From a virus (Duplodnaviria > Caudoviricetes), in IMG/VR virus record IMGVR_UViG_3300033067_002286, positions 1 to 38,809 of that record: a DNA stretch of 38,809 nt. One strand, written 5' to 3'. The notes under the pieces were generated by a model. It worked only from the letters and a program-made list of their open reading frames with translations, had not been told where the DNA came from and made no database searches. The translations under genes and the position numbers were made by a program. Below are positions 4,198 through 32,068 of the stretch, one piece after another; positions within the stretch are counted from its first letter, which is position 1; each line of letters starts with the position of its first letter.

Positions 4198-4635
4198 ATG
4201 GCAAACACCACAAGCACCACAAGTCCCGAAGTAAAGGCTCCTAAGCTGGCTTTCGAGCCGATGAAGTCCACTCACAAAGATCACCAGCCGACAGAGGACG
4301 GCGCGTTCTTGGTTCTACGCAACGTCGAATCACCGAACCCGTATATCAAGAAGGGCGATTCCAAATACCTCCGAACCGGCGTCAAGCTCGTAGTCCCAGA
4401 AGGTTACCTGTGTTTCATCGCCGATCGGCGCGTTCATGGCAGCAGCTTTATGCTGTATCACGTGCAGTTCTTGACGCCTGGCACCAGTGGCGAGGTGTCT
4501 ATCCTTTGCGGCGCGGGGCACATCGCCGATCGCAACGTCCGCATGGGAGAAGAGATTGGCGTTGCGTGGCTCGTAAAGACTGACGGCGCAATGAAGCGCC
4601 CGGAACCGAAGACAGAGAAGGACGAAAGCAAATGA
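4198..4635 (+). CDS. trimeric dUTPase-fold protein with degenerate catalytic motifs
   Basis: RTGVKLVVPEGY..I..R and GEV.I...V..GEEIG follow the dUTPase scaffold; RSG, GVIDxDY, RIAQ and motif 5 are absent. Confidence 0.6.
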   Translation: MANTTSTTSPEVKAPKLAFEPMKSTHKDHQPTEDGAFLVLRNVESPNPYIKKGDSKYLRTGVKLVVPEGYLCFIADRRVHGSSFMLYHVQFLTPGTSGEVSILCGAGHIADRNVRMGEEIGVAWLVKTDGAMKRPEPKTEKDESK

Positions 4636-7078: not shown

Positions 7079-7096
7079 CGGTGTTATTCTGTGCTT
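7079..7096 (+). promoter_or_regulatory. extended -10 leaderless promoter
   Basis: CGGTGT-TATTCT then 6 nt then ATG 7097; same CGGTGY context as the other promoters. Confidence 0.55.
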
Positions 7097-8200
7097 ATGA
7101 GAGAAACACCGCTCGCGCTACTCCTTCTCCCCTACATTGTTTGCTCTTTCAGCTACGCGTTCCTGTGCGGCGTCATAGGACGCACGTATGACCCCCTATC
7201 GGCGTTTTCTGTATACGCCGTCGGTTGTTTAGTAAGCTTCATCGGCTCCGCGCTGTGGTATCGACCGAAGCGCCTTTGGCCGCCCACTCGCGATGAAAGT
7301 CTCGCCGCTGTTGCCAGTACTTTGATTCTCACCAGCTCCACGCTGTCGCTCCTTCTTCCTCAGTCATTGCTCGCCGTTGTTACTTCCAAATCTGGAGCGC
7401 TGCTTATCCCATCAGCGCGTCACATTCGGCTCGTACGCCGAATACCGCTGCAGATGTTGCCGGCGTATATTGTCCGTCGGCTGTCGTTGCCTCTTTTGGC
7501 CATCCTTGCGGTTGTGCTCTCGGCCTGGCGCAAGCCCTTAGTGCTTATCGCTGTGCCGTTCTGTCTGGCTTGCGTATATGTGACCGGGTACGCGTTGAAG
7601 CTCAAGTCTGTAAAGATGGCCAAAATAACTCTACAGCCGCGGACGAAGAATGAATTCGTCGTAGCGGAACAGCTTGTCGTCGCCGTTGTTACCCTCGCCA
7701 TCGCTGCACTATTCGACCAATACCGCCGACTGGTGCCTGGTAGCGGTCATGCCGCCACACTTGCCGACTGGCGCTTATGGGCTGTTGCCGCAGCCAGCTA
7801 CGGCGGCGGATTCATTGGTACCCAGCTTGTGCTGCACTCGACCCCGCAGACGATAGTTTTTCCCGCCTACCGCGCTGCATCGCTTCTCTGCGCGCTCGGA
7901 GCTTCGGCCGCTCGTGGAGAACTACACTGGAAGCGCGCGTACTGGTCCGACTGGAGCGCGCTGGCGGTCGCACTAGTTGTCGTTCTGTGGGCTTCCGGCG
8001 CGTTTTCCTTTACACGGAAGCGTTTTGCGGTATACAGTAGCTACTTCAATACCCATGCGGTCACTCAAACGCTCCGGAATGCAAAGGAATGGCTTTCTGT
8101 GGCATGGGACAATTCCATGAACGCGGAGGCACGGCGTCGTGCCGCAGTTAATGCCGCTTTGTCGCGTTGGTTTGTAGACAATTTCACCGGAGAACGGTAA
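7097..8200 (+). CDS. polytopic membrane protein (about 9-10 hydrophobic segments; DMT/EamA-like topology)
   Basis: Alternating hydrophobic stretches in two halves; 3 nt upstream of purB. Confidence 0.55.
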   Translation: MRETPLALLLLPYIVCSFSYAFLCGVIGRTYDPLSAFSVYAVGCLVSFIGSALWYRPKRLWPPTRDESLAAVASTLILTSSTLSLLLPQSLLAVVTSKSGALLIPSARHIRLVRRIPLQMLPAYIVRRLSLPLLAILAVVLSAWRKPLVLIAVPFCLACVYVTGYALKLKSVKMAKITLQPRTKNEFVVAEQLVVAVVTLAIAALFDQYRRLVPGSGHAATLADWRLWAVAAASYGGGFIGTQLVLHSTPQTIVFPAYRAASLLCALGASAARGELHWKRAYWSDWSALAVALVVVLWASGAFSFTRKRFAVYSSYFNTHAVTQTLRNAKEWLSVAWDNSMNAEARRRAAVNAALSRWFVDNFTGER

Positions 8201-8203
8201 AAT

Positions 8204-9544
8204 ATGATACCTCGTTACACTCGACCTGAGATGTCCGCGCTGTGGACCGATGAACGGCGCTATAACTTGTGGCTTGAAATCGAGTTGGCAGCGCATGAAG
8301 CGCTGGAGGCAACACCCAATAGCCCGATACCACAAGGCGCAACGGCGAAGCTGCGCGAGTCTGTTACCGAATCACAAAAGGTCTATGACTGCTTGTGCCA
8401 TGGCGCAAAGTCCCGCATCGACATGTACGAGCGTGAGACTCAACACGAGTTCGTTGCTTTTCTTCGAACTTGCGAAGAACGATACGTATGCCCGTTTCTG
8501 CACTATGGGCTTACATCCTCTGACGTACAAGACACGGCGTTTTCCTTACTGCTCCGTGACGCTACTGCTTTAATCCTTACTGGTGTACGGGTCGAGTTAT
8601 TCCCTGCGCTCCGAGCGCAAGCGGAAGCCCATCGAAATACTGTATGCATCGGCCGTACGCATGGACAGCATGCAGAGCCTACAAGTCTTGGGCTGTTGTT
8701 TCTCGGCGCGTATGAAGAGATCAAACGCGCACAGGTTCGAGTCTGGGACGCATTCAACCAACTCACCGGTAAACTGTCTGGTGCAGTCGGCGTTTACGGT
8801 GCTGGATTTCCACCAGAGACCGAAGCAGCAGCCTTAAAAGCGCTTGGACTCAAGCCAGAGTTGGTCGGAACTCAGATAGTCCCGCGTGACAGGCATGCAG
8901 CACTATTTCAAGCGCTCGCGCTGCTAGCAGCAGCTATCGAGCGGTTGTGTCTGAATATTCGGCACCTGTCGCGCAGTGAAGTAGGCGAGCTGGCCGAGGG
9001 CTTTGCGGAGGGCCAAAAAGGAAGTTCAGCAATGCCCCATAAGCGCAATCCCATCAGCGCAGAAAACTTGTGTGGCTTAGCGCGGCTTGTGCGCGGATAC
9101 GCGGATACTTCGCTGGAGAACGTCGCGCTGTGGCATGAACGTGATATTAGTCATAGCTCGGTTGAACGCGTGATAGCACCGGACATTACAGCGCTATGCG
9201 ATTATATGGTTCATCGTTGCGCAAAGCTTGTACGCGGTTTGATAGTGAATGTCGAGCGGTGCAAGCATAACCTAGAGATGGGCGATTGGCGCTGGGCCTC
9301 AGAGCGCGTCATGCTTGCACTTGTTCGTAGTGGTCTAACTCGAAGCGTAGCGCATGAGCTGGTGCAACGAACTACGGAGTTGCGCGGGTTTACATTTAAA
9401 CGACATTGTGTGTACGGAGAGATCTACGACCGACTAGGCGACCACTTGCTGAAATGCTTTGACCTCACCGATGTGTTGCGCCACATTCCAGCTATTTATG
9501 AGCGCGTATTCGGCTGCGCGATTGAGAATTCCGCTACGCAGTAA
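8204..9544 (+). CDS. purB: adenylosuccinate lyase
   Basis: MIPRY, HYGLTSSD, GRTHG, GSSAMPHKRNP (fumarate-lyase signature) and WHERDISHSSVER. Confidence 0.96.
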   Translation: MIPRYTRPEMSALWTDERRYNLWLEIELAAHEALEATPNSPIPQGATAKLRESVTESQKVYDCLCHGAKSRIDMYERETQHEFVAFLRTCEERYVCPFLHYGLTSSDVQDTAFSLLLRDATALILTGVRVELFPALRAQAEAHRNTVCIGRTHGQHAEPTSLGLLFLGAYEEIKRAQVRVWDAFNQLTGKLSGAVGVYGAGFPPETEAAALKALGLKPELVGTQIVPRDRHAALFQALALLAAAIERLCLNIRHLSRSEVGELAEGFAEGQKGSSAMPHKRNPISAENLCGLARLVRGYADTSLENVALWHERDISHSSVERVIAPDITALCDYMVHRCAKLVRGLIVNVERCKHNLEMGDWRWASERVMLALVRSGLTRSVAHELVQRTTELRGFTFKRHCVYGEIYDRLGDHLLKCFDLTDVLRHIPAIYERVFGCAIENSATQ

Positions 9545-21859: not shown

Positions 21860-21863
21860 GTTT

Positions 21864-21936
21864 GCTGGGTTAGCTCAGTTGGTAGAGCAGCTGCCTTGTA
21901 AGCAGCAGGTCAGGTGTTCGAATCGCCTACCCAGCA
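21864..21936 (+). tRNA. trnT: tRNA-Thr (anticodon UGU), CCA not encoded
   Basis: Full cloverleaf: GCTGGGT/ACCCAGC acceptor stem, GCTC/GAGC D-stem, GCTGC-CT TGT AA-GCAGC anticodon arm, TTCGAAT T-loop. Confidence 0.95.
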
Positions 21937-21981
21937 TCGGCGCAAGCCGTGTTGACAACAAATAACAAGGAGAACGTTACC

Positions 21982-22316: not shown

Positions 22317-22916
22317 ATGGAAAAGAAACATCAGGGCTACCACGGAGCTTGGAACGATAACAACGCGCGTTCCGAGCGAGTGGCCGATGACTTGTACCCG
22401 ACGCCAGCTGAAGCGACGCAATGCTTGCTACGACGCGTGAAATTCAACGGCGCTATTTGGGAGTGCGCGGCTGGCTTGGGTCACATCAGCTGGGAACTCA
22501 AGCAAGCTGGTTACGAGTACATAAGCACAGATCTGTGCGCGGCGCAATACAAACACGGCGAAACGCTTGATTTTCTGCAGGCAGACAAAGCGCTTGCACC
22601 AAATATCGTAACCAATCCGCCGTACAAGCTGCTACGCAAGTTCATTCGTAAAGCGCTTACGCTGCCCGGCATTGATACTGTAGCGTTCTTCATTCCGTAT
22701 CCGGCTATCGCGTATGTCGGTATTCACAAGCTATTTGAAGAACTCGGCCACCCAACGCTTATTCTTGCTATGGTGCCGAACTTCACTATCTGGATGGGTG
22801 CGGAGCGCGGCTGGCAACAGTCATTCTTTAAGCACTGTTGGCTTGTGTGGGATCGTAGCGAACCGAAGCGTTCTAGTAGTTTATTTGAGCTGCGTGATTG
22901 GCGTGTAGTAAAATAG
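22317..22916 (+). CDS. phage DNA amino-methyltransferase (m6A/m4C type)
   Basis: DLYPTP, WECAAGLGHI (SAM-binding) and IVTNPPY catalytic motif. Confidence 0.85.
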   Translation: MEKKHQGYHGAWNDNNARSERVADDLYPTPAEATQCLLRRVKFNGAIWECAAGLGHISWELKQAGYEYISTDLCAAQYKHGETLDFLQADKALAPNIVTNPPYKLLRKFIRKALTLPGIDTVAFFIPYPAIAYVGIHKLFEELGHPTLILAMVPNFTIWMGAERGWQQSFFKHCWLVWDRSEPKRSSSLFELRDWRVVK

Positions 22917-23781: not shown

Positions 23782-26145
23782 ATGGGTCATCAGCTTAGTT
23801 TTCTATCATCGCTGAGCCCCGATGAGCCGCTGCTATCATATGTAGTACTGCGCAGTGACGAGCGCTGGAGCGCTGCTCTTCAAGAGCTAGACACAGTCGG
23901 CTGGGTATCGCTGGATACCGAGTTCTGGCAAGACTCAGATTTGCTGCGCGCTGCCAAGCTGTCTGGACGCGATCTGCCGAAACCACCAGATTGGGACCCA
24001 TGGAGCTGTCGTCTAAGATTGCTTCAAATAGGTCTGCCGTCCGGACTGGTCATTGTCGCCGACTTCGGCCTTGAAAAGCTTCCTATCAACGCGCGCTGGG
24101 ATGAATCGACGCCGAATGCGGACTTGCTCGCTATTCTACAGCGCGTGCTCTGCAGTTACGAAGTGCCGGTATTTGGTCAAGCGCTGGGTACTGAAGCGCT
24201 CATACTGCGGCGGCATTTCGGGCTCAGCATTCGACGGCCACGCGATACGATGCTTGCGTCTCAAGTCATCTGGGCCGGCGTCGGTAGCAAAGAATGGGTG
24301 TGGACTGACCACGGCCGCGTAAAGCGCGATCGGATGCGTCACACTTTGCAGGCTATTGGCGCGCGTGTCGGTATCGAGTTCGACAAAACCGAGCAAAGCA
24401 GCGACTGGAGCTCACCGAAGCTAAGCAATAAACAAATAAACTACGCCGCAAAGGATGTACACCGCGACACACTAGTTGAAACATGGTCACGCTTGGCGAA
24501 GCTGGCCAAAAAAGACGGCGTATGGGAATCGGTCCTTATCGAATGTGACGCAGCGCCGGCATTCTGGGAGATAGAATGGCGCGGCATGTCGTTCGATCAA
24601 GCCGCAACGCAAAAGCTCGCCGATGACTATGGCCGTGTTGCTGATCAGTGTTTTGCTCAGCTCGCGTCAGTATTACCGCCGGGCACAATACTCGAAGGCC
24701 CAGGCAGTGCTGCAAGTCTTCCTTTGGCCCTCACCAAATATATAAACCCAGACGGCGATGTGACTTGGTGGCGCAAAGGTGCGGAAGTTGCAGCACTGTC
24801 GTCTATGACTACGAATCAAGCGTGGGCAAAGGGCTATTCGGAAGAGCGCGTCTGCTTCTATCGCTGGGAACAGACGATACAGAAACGCAAGACTGTACGT
24901 GAGGGTTGGCTACTCACTCCGGAAGAGGCTGAGCAACAGCGCTTCAAGTTAGTTCCGCAGACTGGCGAGGCTGAGCTATCGCCCTTCGACACCGATCCTG
25001 CAGTCGTGGCGCTGCTTGAAGCGCGTTCAGCGCGCAGTGTTGAAGGAGTTCTGCGCAAGCGCATCAAGAACTCATGGCCGGACCCAGAAATGCCCGCGCG
25101 CGTAGCTGCTCGCTGCCGTTATTGGCAGATAAGCGGCGGCGAGGATGACGCAGGCGCTGGTATGGGGCGCTCCAGCAGTAGCAAACCCTTTAACGCGCAG
25201 AATCTGACGGCATGGCCGCTTGGCGAGAAGCGCCACAAAGAACTCAAGCTTCCGAATGCGCGCAGTACAGCCCGGCCACCAGTCGGCCGCGGTATGGGTG
25301 TAGGAGACTTTTCTCAAGCGCACCTGCGATTCGCTACTGAGATGTCGCAAGATGCTGGCATGTTGGAGGACTTCAATGCCGGACGTGATGCGCATATCCG
25401 CCTTGCCTGCGAAATAGCAAAAGCTCAAGGCGTCGAAGCGGATTTCTACGAGTGGTGCCGCATTTATCAGAGCGGCGACAAAGCGCATCCGGTATTCGGT
25501 ACTATAAAGGAGAAACGCCAGCCAGCCAAAGTAGGTAACTATACATGCGTATGCCTCGGCGGTGTTGCAACTATGGCTATGTCTGCAGCGACAGCGGTTG
25601 AGCCCATACACCTACCGGACGAGATCTGGGAACTGACACGCAAGGCTTGGCGCGAGACGAACCACGAGCTGTACGCGTTTATTAAGGGCCAAGTCAAGAA
25701 AGCCGATCGCAGCAATCACGAATTTGGCGAATACGGCGTTTACGGCGAAGTGTGGAACTGTACTCACAATCGCCGGTTGTTCTTACTCAAGGAATGGAAC
25801 GTCCCGCAGTGGGAAGACGCCGTCGGGCGCTGGTCTGTTCGTGGCACTGACACCAGCGCCGCTATGTGGCAAATGTCAGAGGCTAATGCACTCAAGATCG
25901 CTTTGGCCCTCTTTCTGAAGGACTGTGACGATCATCCTGAATGGGAAGCGTTTCCCATCAACGCCGTACACGATGAGATAGACTTCGAATTCAAGTGGAA
26001 TATTCAGTATGAGGCCGAAGTAGCGTGGTCGGTTTATGATGCTATGGGCGAAGGTATGCGCCGCGCTGGTATTAAGTCCTTGCCAGTGCGTGCGCCGGAT
26101 GATACGCCGCAGAAACTCTTAGTGCAGAGTTGGGCAGACAAATAA
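23782..26145 (+). CDS. family A DNA polymerase with 3'-5' exonuclease, divergent active site
   Basis: Exo motifs LDTE, DTMLA and YAAKD; pol motifs GRSSS..NAQN, DFSQAHLR, RQPAKVGNY and VHDEI. Confidence 0.92.
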   Translation: MGHQLSFLSSLSPDEPLLSYVVLRSDERWSAALQELDTVGWVSLDTEFWQDSDLLRAAKLSGRDLPKPPDWDPWSCRLRLLQIGLPSGLVIVADFGLEKLPINARWDESTPNADLLAILQRVLCSYEVPVFGQALGTEALILRRHFGLSIRRPRDTMLASQVIWAGVGSKEWVWTDHGRVKRDRMRHTLQAIGARVGIEFDKTEQSSDWSSPKLSNKQINYAAKDVHRDTLVETWSRLAKLAKKDGVWESVLIECDAAPAFWEIEWRGMSFDQAATQKLADDYGRVADQCFAQLASVLPPGTILEGPGSAASLPLALTKYINPDGDVTWWRKGAEVAALSSMTTNQAWAKGYSEERVCFYRWEQTIQKRKTVREGWLLTPEEAEQQRFKLVPQTGEAELSPFDTDPAVVALLEARSARSVEGVLRKRIKNSWPDPEMPARVAARCRYWQISGGEDDAGAGMGRSSSSKPFNAQNLTAWPLGEKRHKELKLPNARSTARPPVGRGMGVGDFSQAHLRFATEMSQDAGMLEDFNAGRDAHIRLACEIAKAQGVEADFYEWCRIYQSGDKAHPVFGTIKEKRQPAKVGNYTCVCLGGVATMAMSAATAVEPIHLPDEIWELTRKAWRETNHELYAFIKGQVKKADRSNHEFGEYGVYGEVWNCTHNRRLFLLKEWNVPQWEDAVGRWSVRGTDTSAAMWQMSEANALKIALALFLKDCDDHPEWEAFPINAVHDEIDFEFKWNIQYEAEVAWSVYDAMGEGMRRAGIKSLPVRAPDDTPQKLLVQSWADK

Positions 26146-26146
26146 G

Positions 26147-26175
26147 TTGACATCTGTACTCGGCGGTGTTATGCT
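26147..26175 (+). promoter_or_regulatory. sigma70-type promoter
   Basis: TTGACA-17-TATGCT with CGGTGT context; AGGAG RBS and ATG at 26201. Confidence 0.75.
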
Positions 26176-26200
26176 GGGTTGTCAATTAATAGGAGCCGTC

Positions 26201-27901
26201 ATGACCCAGCCGGTATCGTCCAAAGGAATCTATTCTGACAAAGCCAAGCGTCACTACCTCACTGCCGATCTGCCCGCAGAGCTCCAGCAGCTCTGGACAG
26301 ATGCGCGCCACTGGCGCAGCGTCAAGGGCAATGAAAAAGTGTGGTGGCATAGCCGAATGCCCGGCGACGCTAGTTCACCGCTGCTGAACTTCAAATACCC
26401 AATTGGAGCAAAGCTGTCCGACGACAGAGCCAAGTTCAGCGCTTCTAAAAACACTATGCTGGCTTGCTGGCAGCGCCTTAAGGCCAAGACCAAGCCGGCT
26501 GTCATTCCTCCGGCTGCCACTGCGCCGCTGCCTGCTAATACGACTGTGAGTCAGGGGCAGCCCGTCACTTCTCCCGCGCCGACACCGGCGCTTGACGCGG
26601 CGCGCAAGCACAATCTAATTGGTCCGCGTGTGAGCAGTACTGAGTATATGTGTCTGTGTCCCTGGCGTGCAGAGCATAAGACCGGTGGACAGCAGAACGG
26701 CATCCACGATCAAAGCACACAGGTCGGACCGAATAGCTTTCACTGCCGGCATGGCTCGTGCCAGGGCAAGCGCTACGCGGCTGAGTTCCTGGCGGCGCTG
26801 AATCCACCGGAAGTGCCGAAGGTAAGCGCGGCGACGCAGGTGATTTTAGTCATCGACAACAGCATCAGCATGAGGGAAAGCAACAAGCACGCTGCAGCGC
26901 GCAAGCAGATTCAGCTTATCTGCGATCAGCTGCGCAACAATATGCCGCAGTGGGCAGTTAAAGTGTTGTTCTTTGGCCGTAGCGTATCATATGCGTTTAC
27001 CGGCGAAGCGAAGTTGCTGCCACTGCTTCATGAACGTTATCACCCGAATGAGGGCGCAACGCGGCTGTACGATGCGGTGGGGACGGCAGCCGTGGCGGCG
27101 CTTGGTGTCAGCATCCCGTCGCTGATCTATTTGATCACTGATGGCGAACCGGCCGGATACGTAATGACCGCTATTGCGTCCCATCGTTCCATCGCTGCGG
27201 CGCGGGTCAAAGAGGCGCTTGACTCCAAGCGTGTCACAATGATTTGTGTTGGTCCGCCGACTGCGACGGCGTTCTTCGAGTCCTGTGGTATTCCCGGCGG
27301 CGTAGATGGCTGCATTCGAAGCTGGGACGGCTACGACGCAAAGGATCTGGACAAGATCACCGGACAGGTGAGCGAAGGGCTCAAGTCCTACGCTGCAGCG
27401 CGCGAAGCTGGCGAGACGCAGATAAAGAAGTTCTTCGTTGACGGCCGAAAGCTGGAAGCGCGCTTGCATGAGCTCATCGACATCACGGCGCTGTGTAAGG
27501 TGCTGCGCGTTGACCGCGAATGCGTACTGCAGCCATTCGTTGAAGATAGCGGCCACAAGTTCGTCCCCGGCGCGAACTTCTACCCACTCACCAAGAAAGA
27601 AACGCTGCGGCCGAACCGCGCAATTCTGGTACGGCCGAAGCTTGGGCATCCCATGCCTTCATTAGTGGTCAACAACATTCCCACACGACGTATTTTCTCT
27701 GGTCCGAATGTGCGCGAAGTGCTCGGACTGCCGACAGACCGCGAAGTGACAGTTGAGCCCGGTGATATGGGCAACTTGGAGCTGTTCCTTGAGAGCTCCA
27801 GCCATAACCGCCTGCTGGTGCGCGCCACTGATCTTATCGTTCGTCTCGACGTGCAGCCGCAAGCTCACACCTGGGCCAAGCCGCAGCCGCAGTCGAACTA
27901 G
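26201..27901 (+). CDS. multidomain protein: N-terminal domain, primase-type Zn finger, vWA domain, C-terminal domain
   Basis: CPWRAEH...FHCRHGSC; MIDAS motifs VIDNSISM, TRLYDAVG and ITDGE; C-terminal FYPLTKKE..LGLP..SSSHNR. Confidence 0.75.
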   Translation: MTQPVSSKGIYSDKAKRHYLTADLPAELQQLWTDARHWRSVKGNEKVWWHSRMPGDASSPLLNFKYPIGAKLSDDRAKFSASKNTMLACWQRLKAKTKPAVIPPAATAPLPANTTVSQGQPVTSPAPTPALDAARKHNLIGPRVSSTEYMCLCPWRAEHKTGGQQNGIHDQSTQVGPNSFHCRHGSCQGKRYAAEFLAALNPPEVPKVSAATQVILVIDNSISMRESNKHAAARKQIQLICDQLRNNMPQWAVKVLFFGRSVSYAFTGEAKLLPLLHERYHPNEGATRLYDAVGTAAVAALGVSIPSLIYLITDGEPAGYVMTAIASHRSIAAARVKEALDSKRVTMICVGPPTATAFFESCGIPGGVDGCIRSWDGYDAKDLDKITGQVSEGLKSYAAAREAGETQIKKFFVDGRKLEARLHELIDITALCKVLRVDRECVLQPFVEDSGHKFVPGANFYPLTKKETLRPNRAILVRPKLGHPMPSLVVNNIPTRRIFSGPNVREVLGLPTDREVTVEPGDMGNLELFLESSSHNRLLVRATDLIVRLDVQPQAHTWAKPQPQSN

Positions 27902-27975: not shown

Positions 27976-29667
27976 ATGCGAAATCCCTTGATTGTCGTTC
28001 TGTCTGGCCCTATCGCGGTCGGCAAGTCCACTCTGTCTGCAGCGCTTGTTGAGCGCTTCGGTTTTTACTGCGTCAAAACTCGTTCGCTGCTCAAGCAGCT
28101 CGCAAACGATCGCGGCTCTGATCAGTTGACGCGCGCTGAGCTCCAGCACGGCGGCGCTGACCTAGATAAGCGCACCGACGGCGCATGGATTGCGGACGCG
28201 CTGAATAAGTCTGGTATGTGCAACGCAGTGCCAATTATCGTCGATTCGGTTCGTACTGCTGAGCAGATCGCCCACATTCGTCGCATGAACGGTAGTGTTA
28301 CCGGCGCTGTAAATGTAAAACACGTGCACATCACTGCGTCGCATGCTATTTTGGAAGAGCGCTTTATCATACGTCGTCGTGAGGCGGTTCAGCACGAAAA
28401 GCCTTGTTTAGATGGAACGGGAGGTGGAAGTAACCCGCTGACATTTGATCGGGCCATGATTGGTGAGCCTATTGATGAGCTCGATGGCACGTTGGAGCGC
28501 ATCGCCGACGTTTGCATAGACACTACGCGTCTGCAGCCAGAAGATATCGCCGTGCGCGTCGCCGCTGCGCTCGGGCTATACAATAACCACGATCGGCTGG
28601 TAGACGTGCTGGTGGGCGGCCAGTGGGGCTCCGAGGGCAAAGGACAAGTCAGCGGCTATCTTGCGCCGGAATATGACGTACTCGTGCGCGTCGGCGGACC
28701 AAACGCTGGTCACAAGGTCTACGAGCTGCCTAAGCCGTACACTTTCTATCATCTGCCCAGCGGAACGCGATGCAATCGCCGCGCACAGATCGTACTTGGC
28801 CCCGGCGCTGTGCTCGGACTGCCGAAGCTGATGGAGGAAATCTCTGACTGCGCGCTATCTGGCAGCGGTCGGCTGTTCATCGATCCTCAGGCTATGGTGA
28901 TCGACGCAGCGGACGTGAATATGGAAAACCACGTCGGCAGTGCTGTGGCGGCCATCGGCAGCACAGGTCAAGGTGTTGGTGCGGCGACAGCGCGCAAGGC
29001 GCTGCGCAGCATGGCCGCGTCTGAGTTCGGTTGTCCGGTGCAGCTCGCTCGCGACGTTCCGGGGCTAAAAGAATTTATTCGGCCGACTCTCGAAGTACTC
29101 GATCGCGCTTTCGCGGCTGGTAAGCGCGTGTTCCTTGAAGGCACGCAGGGTACTTCGCTGTCGCTTCATCACGGCGCGTATCCTTACGTCACTTCGCGCG
29201 ATACTACGGTGTCTGGCACGCTGTCCGACGCCGGTATTTCTCCACTGCGTGTGCGCAAGTCGATCATGGTGTGCCGCAGCTATCCCATCCGTGTAAAGTC
29301 CGTTGAAAACACCAGCGGGCCAATGGGACAGGAGATCGACTTCCAGGAAGTTGCGCGTCGCTCGGGTTTTGACGGCGACACGCTGGTACAGCTGGAGAAA
29401 ACCACAACGACCAAGCGCAATCGCCGCGTTGCTGAGTTCAATTGGGCGGAGTTCCGCCGCAGCGTGTCGCTCAACGGTCCGACGGATATTGCGCTGACCT
29501 TTGCCGACTATTATGGCAAGGATAACCAGCAGGCGCGGCGTTATGAGCAGCTCAATGCCGAAGCGCAGCGCCAGATTGAGGCGATGGAGCAAGTCAGCGG
29601 TGCGCCGGTGTCGCTCATTGCTACGCGCTTTCATTTCCGCTCGATCGTCGATCGGCGTCACTGGTAA
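27976..29667 (+). CDS. purZ: P-loop NMP-kinase domain fused to PurZ/PurZ0-like adenylosuccinate synthetase
   Basis: N-terminal SGPIAVGKST and IIVDSVR. C-terminal GGQWGSEGKG (Ser for PurA Asp13), NAGH, IGSTGQGVG, EGTQG..LSL, YPYVTSRD, YPIRV, TTTTKRNRR and TFAD. Confidence 0.85.
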   Translation: MRNPLIVVLSGPIAVGKSTLSAALVERFGFYCVKTRSLLKQLANDRGSDQLTRAELQHGGADLDKRTDGAWIADALNKSGMCNAVPIIVDSVRTAEQIAHIRRMNGSVTGAVNVKHVHITASHAILEERFIIRRREAVQHEKPCLDGTGGGSNPLTFDRAMIGEPIDELDGTLERIADVCIDTTRLQPEDIAVRVAAALGLYNNHDRLVDVLVGGQWGSEGKGQVSGYLAPEYDVLVRVGGPNAGHKVYELPKPYTFYHLPSGTRCNRRAQIVLGPGAVLGLPKLMEEISDCALSGSGRLFIDPQAMVIDAADVNMENHVGSAVAAIGSTGQGVGAATARKALRSMAASEFGCPVQLARDVPGLKEFIRPTLEVLDRAFAAGKRVFLEGTQGTSLSLHHGAYPYVTSRDTTVSGTLSDAGISPLRVRKSIMVCRSYPIRVKSVENTSGPMGQEIDFQEVARRSGFDGDTLVQLEKTTTTKRNRRVAEFNWAEFRRSVSLNGPTDIALTFADYYGKDNQQARRYEQLNAEAQRQIEAMEQVSGAPVSLIATRFHFRSIVDRRHW

Positions 29668-29767
29668 CAACGGCTTTGCACGGGAGACAGGCGCTGCGGT
29701 AGGACAGGCTGATATAGCTGGCGGACTGCCGCAGCGTCTCCCGTGTAAAGAGAAATGGCAAGAAACT

Positions 29768-30196
29768 ATGTTGAACGGATGGGCAAAGAAGATTGCAGCA
29801 GTGCTTGATATTCCCGAACATATCCGTGCGGAGATTATGGGCGTAGACTGTCCAGCACATTTAACGATCGGTGCAATGCAGCGCGCCTTGAACGGCGAAA
29901 ATGTTGCGCCTTGGTTGGGACCAACTTGGGCCAAACTATATGCATCAGCAATCGCCAAACTTACAGTTCATAACTGGCGCATTGAAAGCAGTCTGGCACA
30001 TGAGACGCGCGAGAGCTGCAACGGGCATTGCCAGGCAACTTGTCGGCGCGATAAGCGTACAGGACTGCTGATTGCGTTCGACGCGGAAGGTCAAAAGCCG
30101 CGCCAAGATGCTTACTGGTTTAATACAACTCGTTCGGAACTGCAAGGAGAGTCTGGTACAGTTCAAGACTTAACGCCGCTTGGTGAAATATGGTAG
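29768..30196 (+). CDS. hypothetical protein
   Basis: ORF between purZ and the kinase genes; overlaps the next start. Confidence 0.55.
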   Translation: MLNGWAKKIAAVLDIPEHIRAEIMGVDCPAHLTIGAMQRALNGENVAPWLGPTWAKLYASAIAKLTVHNWRIESSLAHETRESCNGHCQATCRRDKRTGLLIAFDAEGQKPRQDAYWFNTTRSELQGESGTVQDLTPLGEIW

Positions 30197-30798
30197 CACA
30201 GCCATGTATTTATGTCTGCGGCGCAGAGGGAACAGGTAAAACCGATTGGACAGGACGCATTGCGCGCAATTACAAGCTGCTAATGCTTCCAGAGACTGCG
30301 CGCATTGAGCTTGATTGCCGTGGGGGTTCCTTTGGCCCTCTACTGAGCAATCCGACGGCTATGAATGATTATCAACGCGCGGTGTTTGACCGACAGATCG
30401 CGCTAGAGCTCGCAACGACGCCAGCCTATGTCGCCGACGGGCATTGTTTGGAAAACCTCGCTTATGCCTCTGAGAACGCGCAATGCGTAGCCGACTTGTA
30501 TCAACAATTCGTGCGCGACTTGGACAGTTACCAGCGTGAATTCGAAGTGCTTACACGCCTGCGCAACGGTGTTGTGTTTTTCCTTCGACCGCACCCAAGC
30601 ATGAACGCGCAAGATGGAATCCGTATTGGCGCGGACTACGTAGCCAAGCAGCGCATCGATGCAAAGCTTGAGCTGCTGATGCAGTTGTGGGGCGTTCAGT
30701 ATGTGTCTATAGAAACACCGAATGCAGCGCGGCGTGAAGAACTCATCGACTACGTACTTGCGGCGAAAGGATTTAAGAAATGCCCGTCCATATCCTAA
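30190..30798 (+). CDS. P-loop nucleotide kinase-like (AAA_28/NadR/Ttd14-like)
   Basis: GAEGTGKT, LPETAR, VADG and DGIR motifs. Confidence 0.75.
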   Translation: MVAQPCIYVCGAEGTGKTDWTGRIARNYKLLMLPETARIELDCRGGSFGPLLSNPTAMNDYQRAVFDRQIALELATTPAYVADGHCLENLAYASENAQCVADLYQQFVRDLDSYQREFEVLTRLRNGVVFFLRPHPSMNAQDGIRIGADYVAKQRIDAKLELLMQLWGVQYVSIETPNAARREELIDYVLAAKGFKKCPSIS

Positions 30799-31364
30799 CA
30801 GCGTCATGGAAAGGTTCGCTTACCTGGGCCGGCGAGCGTGAAGCGTGGCTCAAGCAGCACTTCGATCTGGACTACAACGATATCACGTTCAGCCATGCCA
30901 AACACAAGGTGCACGGCGACATCTTCATCGACGACAAGCCGAGTTCGCTTGAGCTATGGCAGGCGCGGCATCCAAACGGTGTAGCACTGTTGTGGAAGGA
31001 CGTGTGGAATAGGCCGCATCACAGTAACTGGCCCGGCGCTGACAACTGGCCACACATGATAGAAGAGATCACCTTTCAAGGATACCAGCGCACCAATCGA
31101 TTGAGTGAACTCGAAATTCTTCTTGACTGTGACGGTCCGCTGTCGGACTTCTTTGGCGCAGCTATGAGCTGGCTATACCGCGAGTATTTGGACTACGCCG
31201 CGATGAAATGGCAACCGCAGCCCGAGCATTGGGCGGTTCAAGATTCACTTCCGCCGGAGCGCGCAGCGGCGTTGAATGCGGCTTGTATGCAGCCAGGCTT
31301 TTGCGCTTCACTTGGACTTGTCGAAGGCGCACAAGCAGCAGTTAAATACCTAAGGAGTTTGTGA
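30780..31364 (+). CDS. 5'(3')-deoxyribonucleotidase (NT5C-type HAD), circularly permuted
   Basis: ILTAS, WLKQHF, K...GDIFIDD and WN come first; motif I LLDCDG and the cap (PGFCASL..VEGA) follow in the C-terminal half. Confidence 0.8.
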   Translation: MPVHILTASWKGSLTWAGEREAWLKQHFDLDYNDITFSHAKHKVHGDIFIDDKPSSLELWQARHPNGVALLWKDVWNRPHHSNWPGADNWPHMIEEITFQGYQRTNRLSELEILLDCDGPLSDFFGAAMSWLYREYLDYAAMKWQPQPEHWAVQDSLPPERAAALNAACMQPGFCASLGLVEGAQAAVKYLRSL

Positions 31365-32068
31365 TGTTGGCATACAACCCTAAGCGGCGGTGCACCGCGG
31401 ACGGTGTACCAATGAACCGACTTATCATTGGCATTGGCGGACTGAAGCGTAGCGGCAAGGATGAGCTGGCACGAGCGATCATCAGTCACGCACGACAGAA
31501 TGGCGTCATTCTGTGGAACATTGCTTTTGCTGACGCGCTCCGTGATACCGCCGCTGCGGCTTACGGCGTTCCGGTGAATGAGTTCAGCAGCGACCAGCTC
31601 AAAGATGAAGTACACCCGGCGTGGGGTATTACGCGACGGCAGATGCTTATCAATCTCGGCGTACCTGCAACGCTGCTTCCGCCAGCTGGTGCTGATCATT
31701 GGGTCCGCCGTTGGCAGCAAAGCCTTTCAGATCTTCCCATGAACACTAGCGGCGTTATCGCGGCGGACATTCGGCGCACGAATGAGGCCGCGGCGGTGCA
31801 CGACATGGGCGGCGTGAATATTCTGGTGCGGCGTCCAGGCATCACGTGGAACGGTCACATCACTGAGAAATTGTCTTGGCTTGCATCGACGGCGCGCGGC
31901 AGTTATAATTATGGAGATGCTGCATTGCATGAAATGGGCTCTGCCGGGCAACGATCAACCCGTCCGGTGTTTGACCTGGTTATCGATAATGATGGCAGCG
32001 TTTCAGACCTTCATGCAAAAGCATCGCAGTTGTACAAGGCGGTGCTTGATGTCAGGAGACACTGTTAA
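31361..32068 (+). CDS. deoxynucleoside monophosphate kinase (T4 gp1/T5 Dnk-like)
   Basis: IGIGGLKRSGKD, FADALR, T.RQML..LG, DIRRTNEA and DLVIDNDG. Confidence 0.88.
   Translation: MMLAYNPKRRCTADGVPMNRLIIGIGGLKRSGKDELARAIISHARQNGVILWNIAFADALRDTAAAAYGVPVNEFSSDQLKDEVHPAWGITRRQMLINLGVPATLLPPAGADHWVRRWQQSLSDLPMNTSGVIAADIRRTNEAAAVHDMGGVNILVRRPGITWNGHITEKLSWLASTARGSYNYGDAALHEMGSAGQRSTRPVFDLVIDNDGSVSDLHAKASQLYKAVLDVRRHC

Follow-up and report, generated by a model that had tools for sequence, protein, structure and literature searches.

A kinase-fused branch of the PurZ group common to phages and a probable cellular defence operon

What does a phage do with a synthetase of the adenylosuccinate family that is joined to a nucleotide kinase in a single polypeptide? 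We wanted to answer this for P0001, the 563-residue product of an open reading frame (ORF; 27976..29667, + strand) in the IMG/VR virus record IMGVR_UViG_3300033067_002286 (Duplodnaviria; Caudoviricetes). The whole stretch of 38,809 nucleotides, called the window below, is a linear virus record that is 32% complete. P0001 belongs to a kinase-fused branch of the PurZ group that is common to phages and to a probable cellular defence operon; the operon association has been noted once before, with no PurZ reading.

Two domains and a PurZ-type active site

Pfam, a sequence search of the PDB and the predicted structure agreed on a split of P0001 into two domains. The N-terminal domain, with a nucleoside monophosphate (NMP) kinase fold, covers about residues 1-204 (27976..28587, +) and is followed by a short, archaeal-length domain of the adenylosuccinate synthetase family and of PurZ type (28588..29667, +). 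Pfam gave Adenylsucc_synt with an E-value of 4e-53 and AAA_18/33/17 over residues 7-136. In the AlphaFold2 model (predicted local distance difference test, pLDDT, 81; predicted template modelling score, pTM, 0.67), residues ~206-563 matched the short PurA of Pyrococcus horikoshii (5K7X; Z 38.4), PurZ of phiVC8 and S-2L (34.4 and 32.4) and the PurZ0 that Gordonia phage Archimedes encodes (PDB 7VF6; 34.3), and residues 5-200 matched the adenylate-kinase-related protein 3lw7 (Z 16.9, root-mean-square deviation 2.6, 165 aligned residues). Among the best 120 hits of P0001, 119 were other proteins of similar length and 118 covered 98-100% of the query, and the domain junction was crossed without gaps by a contig of another study (X6 record 19, 28483-29764). 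An assembly artefact as the source of the fusion was ruled out by these full-length homologues and the junction-spanning contig. The search returned no close phage relatives from IMG/VR, near records possibly lying outside the searched set; P0002-P0010 are taken as phage proteins by their similarity to P0001. No match of P0001 was found in PADLOC, and a promoter and terminator scan, which gave 2 promoter-like sites against 3.0 expected, was not used.

Active-site signatures were read in one alignment with E. coli PurA, phiVC8 PurZ and two PurZ0 proteins. E. coli residue numbers are quoted one below the printed alignment numbers, which count the methionine, and residue roles are taken from PMC8342488 and 10.1101/2025.10.22.683976. 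Ser219 (codon TCC, 28630..28632, +) aligned with D13 of E. coli PurA and S14 of phiVC8 PurZ. The PurA catalytic Asp13 is 99% conserved (PMC12884076), and Ser occupied the position in 120/120 nearest homologues of P0001 and in 79/79 cellular fusions. The substrate loop TTTTKRNRR (29401..29427, +) holds T476, which is of PurZ type (E. coli G298, phiVC8 T262), and R481, which is of PurA type (E. coli R303, phiVC8 K267) and is Arg in 105/120 nearest homologues. In PurA this Arg stabilises the ribose 2'-OH, and it is missing from characterised PurZ (PMC8342488). In the NTP-base motif TFADY (29497..29511, +; TFAD 29497-29508), F509 and Y512 are of PurZ type (phiVC8 F295 and Y298). The third residue, D511, is of PurA and PurZ0 type (E. 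coli D333, phiVC8 N297, Archimedes PurZ0 D305), with Asp again in 79/79 cellular fusions.

PurZ0 is said, after work by Tong et al. in 2023, to use GTP. The introduction of 10.1101/2025.10.22.683976 is consistent with this, and one sentence of PMC12884076 gives the donor preferences of PurZ and PurZ0 in reverse order. The amide in the PurZ motif clashes with G or Z as donor base (PMC8342488). A strictly ATP-using PurZ carries this amide (N297/Q308), and P0001 has D511 in its place, as PurZ0 and PurA do, which supports a donor of the GTP type; by these residues, GTP is the likely phosphate donor of the synthetase.

Both residues that set PurZ apart from PurA, Ser at Asp13 and Thr at phiVC8 T262, are therefore present (S219, T476). 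P0001 differs from archaeal short PurA, the best sequence match (E 1e-47) and fold match of its synthetase domain, by Ser, Thr and Phe (F509) in place of the catalytic Asp, G298 and K331, while R303 and D333 are kept. It scored 268 bits with the archaeal PurA model NF003295 (cut-off 368), lay under all PurA cut-offs, and scored 203 bits with the PurZ model NF038379 (cut-off 300). An ordinary PurA was ruled out by the residues, by the cut-offs and by the separate Asp-type PurA present in 5/5 tested host genomes of the cellular fusion. The combination of Ser and Asp is the PurZ0 state (Archimedes S14/D305). Compared with PurZ0 of Archimedes and of Arthrobacter phage Wayne, P0001 shares the short fold, Ser at D13, Thr at T262 and the Asp of the NTP motif, but it has an N-terminal kinase, Arg instead of Lys at R303, and F-x-D-Y instead of M-x-D-Q. 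In 81 representatives of the unfused relatives, Ser was found in 76/81, Asp in 80/81 and Arg at R303 in 35/81, the Arg also occurring in 10/36 unfused viral proteins. Since Ser, Asp and Arg are this frequent there, the mixture is a common state of the wider group, and a signature unique to P0001 was ruled out.

A preliminary description of the window, made from its letters, had located the ORF, the TCC codon, TFAD, TTTTKRNRR and the P-loop GPIAVGKST; all were found in place, and the fusion ORF and all the motifs named are real. Its proposals of a PurZ-like enzyme rather than PurA, of GTP as the likely donor and of an N-terminal NMP-kinase fold are borne out, and the structure prediction that it suggested as a check gave the two expected folds. 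The special character that it gave to the mixed signature has to be abandoned. Altogether, the Ser and Thr signatures, with a tree position outside PurA (see below), support a PurZ-like and not a PurA-type synthetase domain.

The kinase domain carries a P-loop (SGPIAVGKST, residues 10-19), R53-Q57-G60-L63-D64, D90-x-x-R93, H116/H118 and R129. The P-loop pattern GxxxxGK[ST], the fold and the DxxR motif of NMP kinases are all present, and the phage deoxynucleoside monophosphate (dNMP) kinase family phrog_139 was matched weakly (E 2.7e-4). Of the 40 columns conserved in the kinase of the cellular family, whose members keep a mean of 38.7 and a minimum of 34, P0001 keeps 33. Its P-loop, R53-Q57-G60-L63-D64 and D90-x-x-R93 are unaltered and R129 is kept, while the family T-E motif is changed. 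Compared with P0002-P0004, the identity was 95-100% in residues 1-74 and 171-204 and fell to 32-33% over residues 75-170, a stretch that has indels and occurs in four or more versions. This hypervariable segment (~residues 76-169; 28201..28482, +) comprises the loop before DSVR and the lid, and the model pLDDT was below 50 at residues 141-169. Such a divergence exceeds drift by far and points to segment exchange under relaxed or diversifying selection.

The indels and lost motifs of the lid would also be expected of a decaying or neutral passenger from a host island, as would P0005, which was called without most of the kinase domain (and may be a gene-calling fragment). The synthetase domain argues otherwise, with 134/143 family-conserved columns kept and 97-98% identity across P0002-P0004, and so do contigs of related strains, which extend over the region in 4 runs that belong to 4 studies (three of them labelled riverine, aquaculture and wastewater). 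We therefore find a passenger hardly credible.

Cellular relatives and their three-gene operon

One genome per species was scanned, for a total of 185,579 species genomes. At least 573 of 600 candidate fusion stretches were confirmed, with ~660 estimated. The best 80 of these stretches, which were kept for analysis, came from Acidobacteriota, Myxococcota, Planctomycetota, Chloroflexota, Gemmatimonadota, Verrucomicrobiota, Pseudomonadota and Nitrosopumilus. The preliminary description had said that no phage PurZ with a fused kinase was known. This holds for cultured phages, where none of 219 matching records covered 80% of the query; the fusion is nevertheless no phage oddity and belongs to a large family that is found chiefly in cells, where it is part of a three-gene operon that is conserved.

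In cellular genomes, operon counts were made on the best 80 of the ~660 stretches. The fusion had only two conserved neighbours, DUF7002, a DarT-like ADP-ribosyltransferase that is predicted to act as a DNA-tagging toxin, and a protein joining an IrrE/M78 peptidase to a macrodomain. DUF7002 adjoined the fusion in 79/80 loci, the exception ending 27 bases after the gene, and the peptidase-macrodomain gene was present in 70/80; the partner profiles used were built from these same 80 loci. In independent metagenome loci of at least 5 kb, DUF7002 was found in 25/26 and the peptidase-macrodomain gene in 24/26, 22 shorter loci being left out. Some loci departed from this arrangement. In three Myxococcota loci (L013, L017 and L021) a HerA ATPase gene upstream replaced the peptidase-macrodomain gene, with a stand-alone IrrE-like peptidase further upstream in L017. 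In three Dehalococcoidia loci (L022, L029 and L042) DUF7002 and a peptidase-like gene were encoded by the other strand, and downstream lay a dCTP-deaminase-like gene. The complete three-gene operon was also seen in marine archaea (Nitrosopumilus, L041 and L073), where genome G001 has a normal archaeal PurA as well. Operon distribution is patchy, and the operon was absent from 300 further genomes sampled in the phylum of one carrier genome (G002).

The DUF7002 model (pLDDT 96) gave DarT1 (8baq, E 1e-4) as best Foldseek match, followed by DarT2 structures, and its Hxx, FFW and xxE motifs are H15, F104-F105-W106 and E189. The macrodomain of the partner matched 2afc (E 4e-49), 5e3b (8e-46), 2fg1, ALC1 and C6orf130, and its peptidase matched IrrE and CapP. 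The cellular relatives thus have what characterises DarTG, a DarT fold with conserved His and Glu and a macrodomain partner (PMC11543638). Known DarTG differs in having neither a nucleotide-synthesis enzyme nor an IrrE/CapP-like peptidase fused to the macrodomain, as far as that paper describes it. At the base-reading position (N104 in DarT1, H119 in DarT2), DUF7002 has an invariant N150. Asn is also found there in several macrodomain-linked DarT proteins, and it appears non-discriminating as an indicator of specificity for guanine or Z.

We compared what lies around the operon with PADLOC. Of 125 neighbour ORFs, 28 had a match at E<=1e-10; of 124 control ORFs, 9 did (Fisher p 0.001). The sample was 125 of 338 neighbour ORFs from 48 loci, with controls from five genomes only; neighbours from the same locus do not count as independent, and some of the matches are generic enzymes. 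Strong matches included Wadjet, type I and II restriction-modification (R-M), QatD, BilC and a CBASS cyclase. From this gene neighbourhood, the cellular operon is likely to be an uncharacterised anti-phage system.

PMC12522546 describes the Lmac_3114 transferase family and its operon with an adenylosuccinate synthetase, accompanied in Pseudomonas by an AAA domain, and reads it as purine or NAD regulation. This is the operon of the cellular relatives, with matching Hxx, FFW and xxE motifs, and its "AAA domain + adenylosuccinate synthetase" is probably the kinase-PurZ-like fusion. The available parts of that paper mention neither the Ser signature, PurZ, the IrrE-macrodomain partner nor phage copies. 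In the searched literature, which left subscription journals largely outside, so that an earlier mention is possible, no description of a kinase-PurZ fusion or PurZ reading of the operon was found, and the term "DUF7002" gave no match. Kongming (10.1101/2024.12.20.629578) resembles the operon in having three genes, with a base-converting enzyme, nucleotide kinases and an NAD-consuming effector; it differs in making dI, where Z is predicted here, in having no kinase in cis and in using Sir2 instead of a DarT-like effector, and we take the likeness as an analogy for a possible mode of action of the operon.

DarT1 attaches ADP-ribose to guanine N2 (PMC11543638). Since Z is the other 2-amino base, a transferase that tags Z-DNA, or that is switched on by a Z nucleotide in the manner of Kongming, is a natural hypothesis. 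We tentatively propose, as a possibility that we hold with considerable doubt, that bacteria and archaea have adopted the phage Z-base enzyme, in the form of the kinase-PurZ fusion, as an immune weapon. Z nucleotides would be built into invading DNA or would serve as an alarm signal, the DarT1-like transferase would ADP-ribosylate the 2-amino group or be activated, and the IrrE-regulated macrodomain would protect self; phages such as that of the window would have recaptured the enzyme alone and would be diversifying the kinase lid. If true, this would be the first case of Z chemistry being used by cells.

Phage copies and direction of transfer

Trees of the synthetase domains were made with FastTree on 240 sequences and with IQ-TREE on 66, the latter by a quick search and with long outgroup branches. 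The fused proteins, together with a few unfused or truncated ones, formed one clade (FastTree 0.95; IQ-TREE SH-aLRT 97). This clade stood apart from phiVC8 PurZ and from the PurZ0 of Archimedes and Wayne (a clade of their own, 99), and all of them lay outside PurA. By its tree position, P0001 is a member of a separate kinase-fused clade, mostly cellular, that is neither PurA, PurZ nor PurZ0; the phylogeny that the preliminary description had called for thus keeps P0001 out of PurA and adds this separation from both PurZ types.

Early branches of the fused clade consisted of phage copies without the partners and of representatives whose context is unknown. The window clade lay inside a set (support 95) with 9 operon-type sequences, and a union with the remaining partnerless phage fusions was rejected (approximately unbiased test, p-AU 0.019). 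A tree that kept the operon-type sequences monophyletic and left the window clade outside them was not rejected (p-AU 0.11), and both groups were named for these tests after the first tree was seen. The topology favours capture of the phage copy from a bacterial operon, and, with the early branches, a path by which the gene passed from phage into the cellular operon and then returned to the window phage.

We then looked at the fusion in viral contigs. Ten IMG/VR contigs carried it (in the tree L082 and L084 are the same, and L086 and L091 denote a single contig). In 3/10, DUF7002 was present: L085 beside a type I R-M system, L088 in a provirus and L089 beside TIR/PIN genes, and these fusion loci look like cargo. 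Both operon partners were missing from the other 7/10, most of which have the fusion in a replication module. In phages with a T4-like portal (L082, L084 and L090) it has a DnaB-like helicase on one side and a primase on the other, with a fusion of uracil-DNA glycosylase and PolA nearby. A more distant fusion (L203), read by eye, stands beside a helicase and a polymerase-like gene. L081 and L087 have DUF1937/DUF4406 genes near a partnerless fusion, families that we take to be linked to the deoxyribosyltransferase fold. In the contig of L086/L091 (G011, 56 kb, 88% complete) the fusion is partnerless and the polymerase matches phiVC8 DpoZ (E 1e-47), which makes it, within the fused clade, the strongest candidate for a full Z genome.

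The window copy is also partnerless. No match to either partner profile or to PF22531 was obtained in the window, where other genes flank the fusion; it thus differs from the Lmac_3114/DUF7002 operon by having the fusion without the transferase.

The window phage and the possible role of the fusion

The window contains head genes, a helicase, a Sak4-like annealing protein, a DNA methyltransferase, PolA, a VWA protein, the fusion, an AAA_28 protein, a nucleotidase-like gene, a dNMP kinase and tail-type genes. The fusion is located in the replication and nucleotide module with PolA, the dNMP kinase and the nucleotidase. An adenylosuccinate lyase, PurB, the next step of the pathway, is encoded at 8204..9544 (+; TIGR00928 364 bits, cut-off 326), and a separate dNMP kinase at 31361..32068 (+; PF21448 over cut-off; phrog_139 E 3e-28). 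The PurZ0 phage Archimedes and phage Ghobes also encode PurB, and among the PurB matches listed (30 of 38 cultured-phage records) were the PurZ-bearing Ghobes, Archimedes, Hiyaa, Spocter, Galactica and Keanu. The nearest named homologues of the phage PurB, at 47-51% identity, come from Myxococcales, Polyangia and Deltaproteobacteria, a weak hint to the host.

We propose that the fusion, the phage PurB and a kinase would make Z nucleotides for phage DNA, with a partial replacement of A that would blunt restriction, a reading that we regard as the likeliest, at about even odds. The synthetase would convert (d)GMP, aspartate and GTP to succinyl-2-aminoadenylate, (d)SMP; PurB would cleave (d)SMP to (d)ZMP; the fused or the neighbouring kinase would phosphorylate (d)ZMP to (d)ZDP; and dZTP would enter phage DNA in place of part of the adenines, blunting restriction. 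The second dNMP kinase of the phage could cover the phosphorylation step.

In this pathway (d)SMP requires PurB before a (d)ZMP kinase can act (PMC8342488; 10.1101/2025.10.22.683976). Direct channelling from synthetase to kinase, put forward in the preliminary description, is therefore unlikely, because a separate lyase works in between. Channelling would be genuine if the fused kinase acted on dSMP, giving a succinylated di- or triphosphate that serves as a signal or as a bulkier DNA base with no lyase. The retention of the fusion in many phyla fits such an activity, and so does the absence of the lyase from the cellular operon, where a PurB-like match was found in 1/80 loci; on the other hand, host PurB, as a housekeeping enzyme, has no need to be encoded there, dSMP would be consumed by the PurB that the phage itself carries, and the orientation of the two domains is poorly predicted, as the pTM of the model indicates. 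We consider a dSMP kinase very improbable.

Returning to Z synthesis for phage DNA, several observations weigh against it. Arg481, the PurA-type 2'-OH residue, is kept, so that GMP remains a possible substrate. The kinase lid is hypervariable and without the family T-E motif. Of 80 viral purB loci, 21 pair with an Asp-type PurA and 15 with a Ser-type one; because viral purB also pairs with Asp-type PurA, the phage PurB supports but does not prove a Z route. An NPPY-type DNA methyltransferase (22317..22916, +) fits adenine-containing DNA, yet its homologues occur in 5 viral PurZ-type loci. The window, 32% complete as a record, had no match at E<2 to DatZ, MazZ-2, DUF5664, DutZ/DmtZ or DpoZ, and two partnerless-fusion phages (G008, 97% complete, and G012, 100%) had none to HD_3, DUF5664, dUTPase or PurB, the DUF5664 and PurB searches having no positive control.

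The same Arg481, with R in 105 of the nearest homologues, would suit an enzyme that, with PurB, converts GMP (or IMP) and not dGMP, as an auxiliary purine gene for ribonucleotides or pool balancing that puts no Z in DNA. The match to archaeal PurA, better than that to PurZ in both fold and bit score, and the PurA and PurB pairs common in phages (the 21/80 above) agree with it. The Ser at the PurA-conserved catalytic Asp13, the PurZ-type T476, F509 and Y512, and the separate Asp-type PurA kept in 5/5 hosts of the cellular fusion do not, and we judge this ribonucleotide role quite improbable.

Complete replacement of A by Z in the window phage is doubtful, because the window has none of the enzymes just named and the two near-complete phages have none of the tested Pfam families. 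Many unfused PurZ viral loci do carry Z-pathway partners, the NDT-Dut protein of Wayne, for example, being matched in 23 loci, and all 98 PurZ0 genomes carry dutZ (PMC12884076). The window differs from these by having no recognisable dutZ or dmtZ, and from PurZ systems by having no datZ, mazZ or dpoZ that we found. Its family A DNA polymerase (23782..26145, +) gave no match with the phiVC8 or Wayne polymerase at E<2.

That no dATP-depleting or Z-selective enzyme was found in the window, and that the partnerless phage copy nests among operon-type sequences, would also be expected of an orphan counter-defence gene. A lone enzyme taken from the host operon would neutralise the DarT-like/macrodomain system, for example by diverting a precursor or making DNA untaggable, with no bulk substitution. 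The kinase segment 75-170, which differs by 67% between otherwise near-identical relatives, looks like a conflict interface, and there are precedents in orphan antitoxin-like enzymes against DarTG1 (PMC11825919) and in precursor depletion against Kongming (10.1101/2024.12.20.629578). Yet the operon is rare, both in the phylum of G002 (0/300 genomes) and overall (~660 stretches in 185,579 species genomes), so that selection would be narrow; the PurB and dNMP kinase kept by the phage fit a biosynthetic route; and phage copies without partners are among the lineages that branch deepest in the fused clade. Counter-defence therefore seems unlikely to us.

A divergent dUTPase-fold protein of the window (4198..4635, +), encoded directly after the capsid genes, is a weak DutZ-like candidate. 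It reached 0.94 to dUTPase clusters of the ESM atlas and a pairwise E of 4e-4 to Archimedes gp55, and had no Pfam match; what we take to be its canonical dUTPase motifs look degenerate. A 5'(3')-deoxyribonucleotidase-like HAD protein (30780..31364, +) matched positions 98-170 of PF06941 with its residues 16-93. Its DCDG, at residue 116, lies C-terminal to IDD at 50 and to this match to the C-terminal half of PF06941, so the protein is apparently circularly permuted; the gene is covered gap-free by a contig of another study. Both genes are possible candidates for control of the nucleotide pool, the dUTPase-fold one possibly for the dATP/dGTP pool. An AAA_28 (NadR/Ttd14-like) P-loop kinase-type protein is encoded at 30190..30798 (+).

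Other features of the window were noted beside these. The VWA-domain protein (phrog_26613; 26147-27901, +) lies directly 5' of the fusion and has short variable stretches in relatives. A tRNA-Thr(TGT) gene (21863-21938, +) sits in the replication module, with variable joints around it in contigs of relatives. A hydrophobic protein without a family match, which probably spans the membrane several times (7091-8200, +), ends 4 bases before purB.

One phage record thus holds a synthetase, a kinase and a lyase, apparently with none of the known dATP-removing enzymes, which suggests a partial-substitution strategy or a different use of Z. For engineered synthesis of dZTP, a synthetase and kinase in a single polypeptide would be of use. 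Descriptions of Z chemistry have presented it as a phage trait, and its Ser-type, kinase-fused branch is found in hundreds of cellular genomes of many phyla. The cellular operon makes two questions testable: whether Z nucleotides occur in cells, and whether there is a Z-based immune system.

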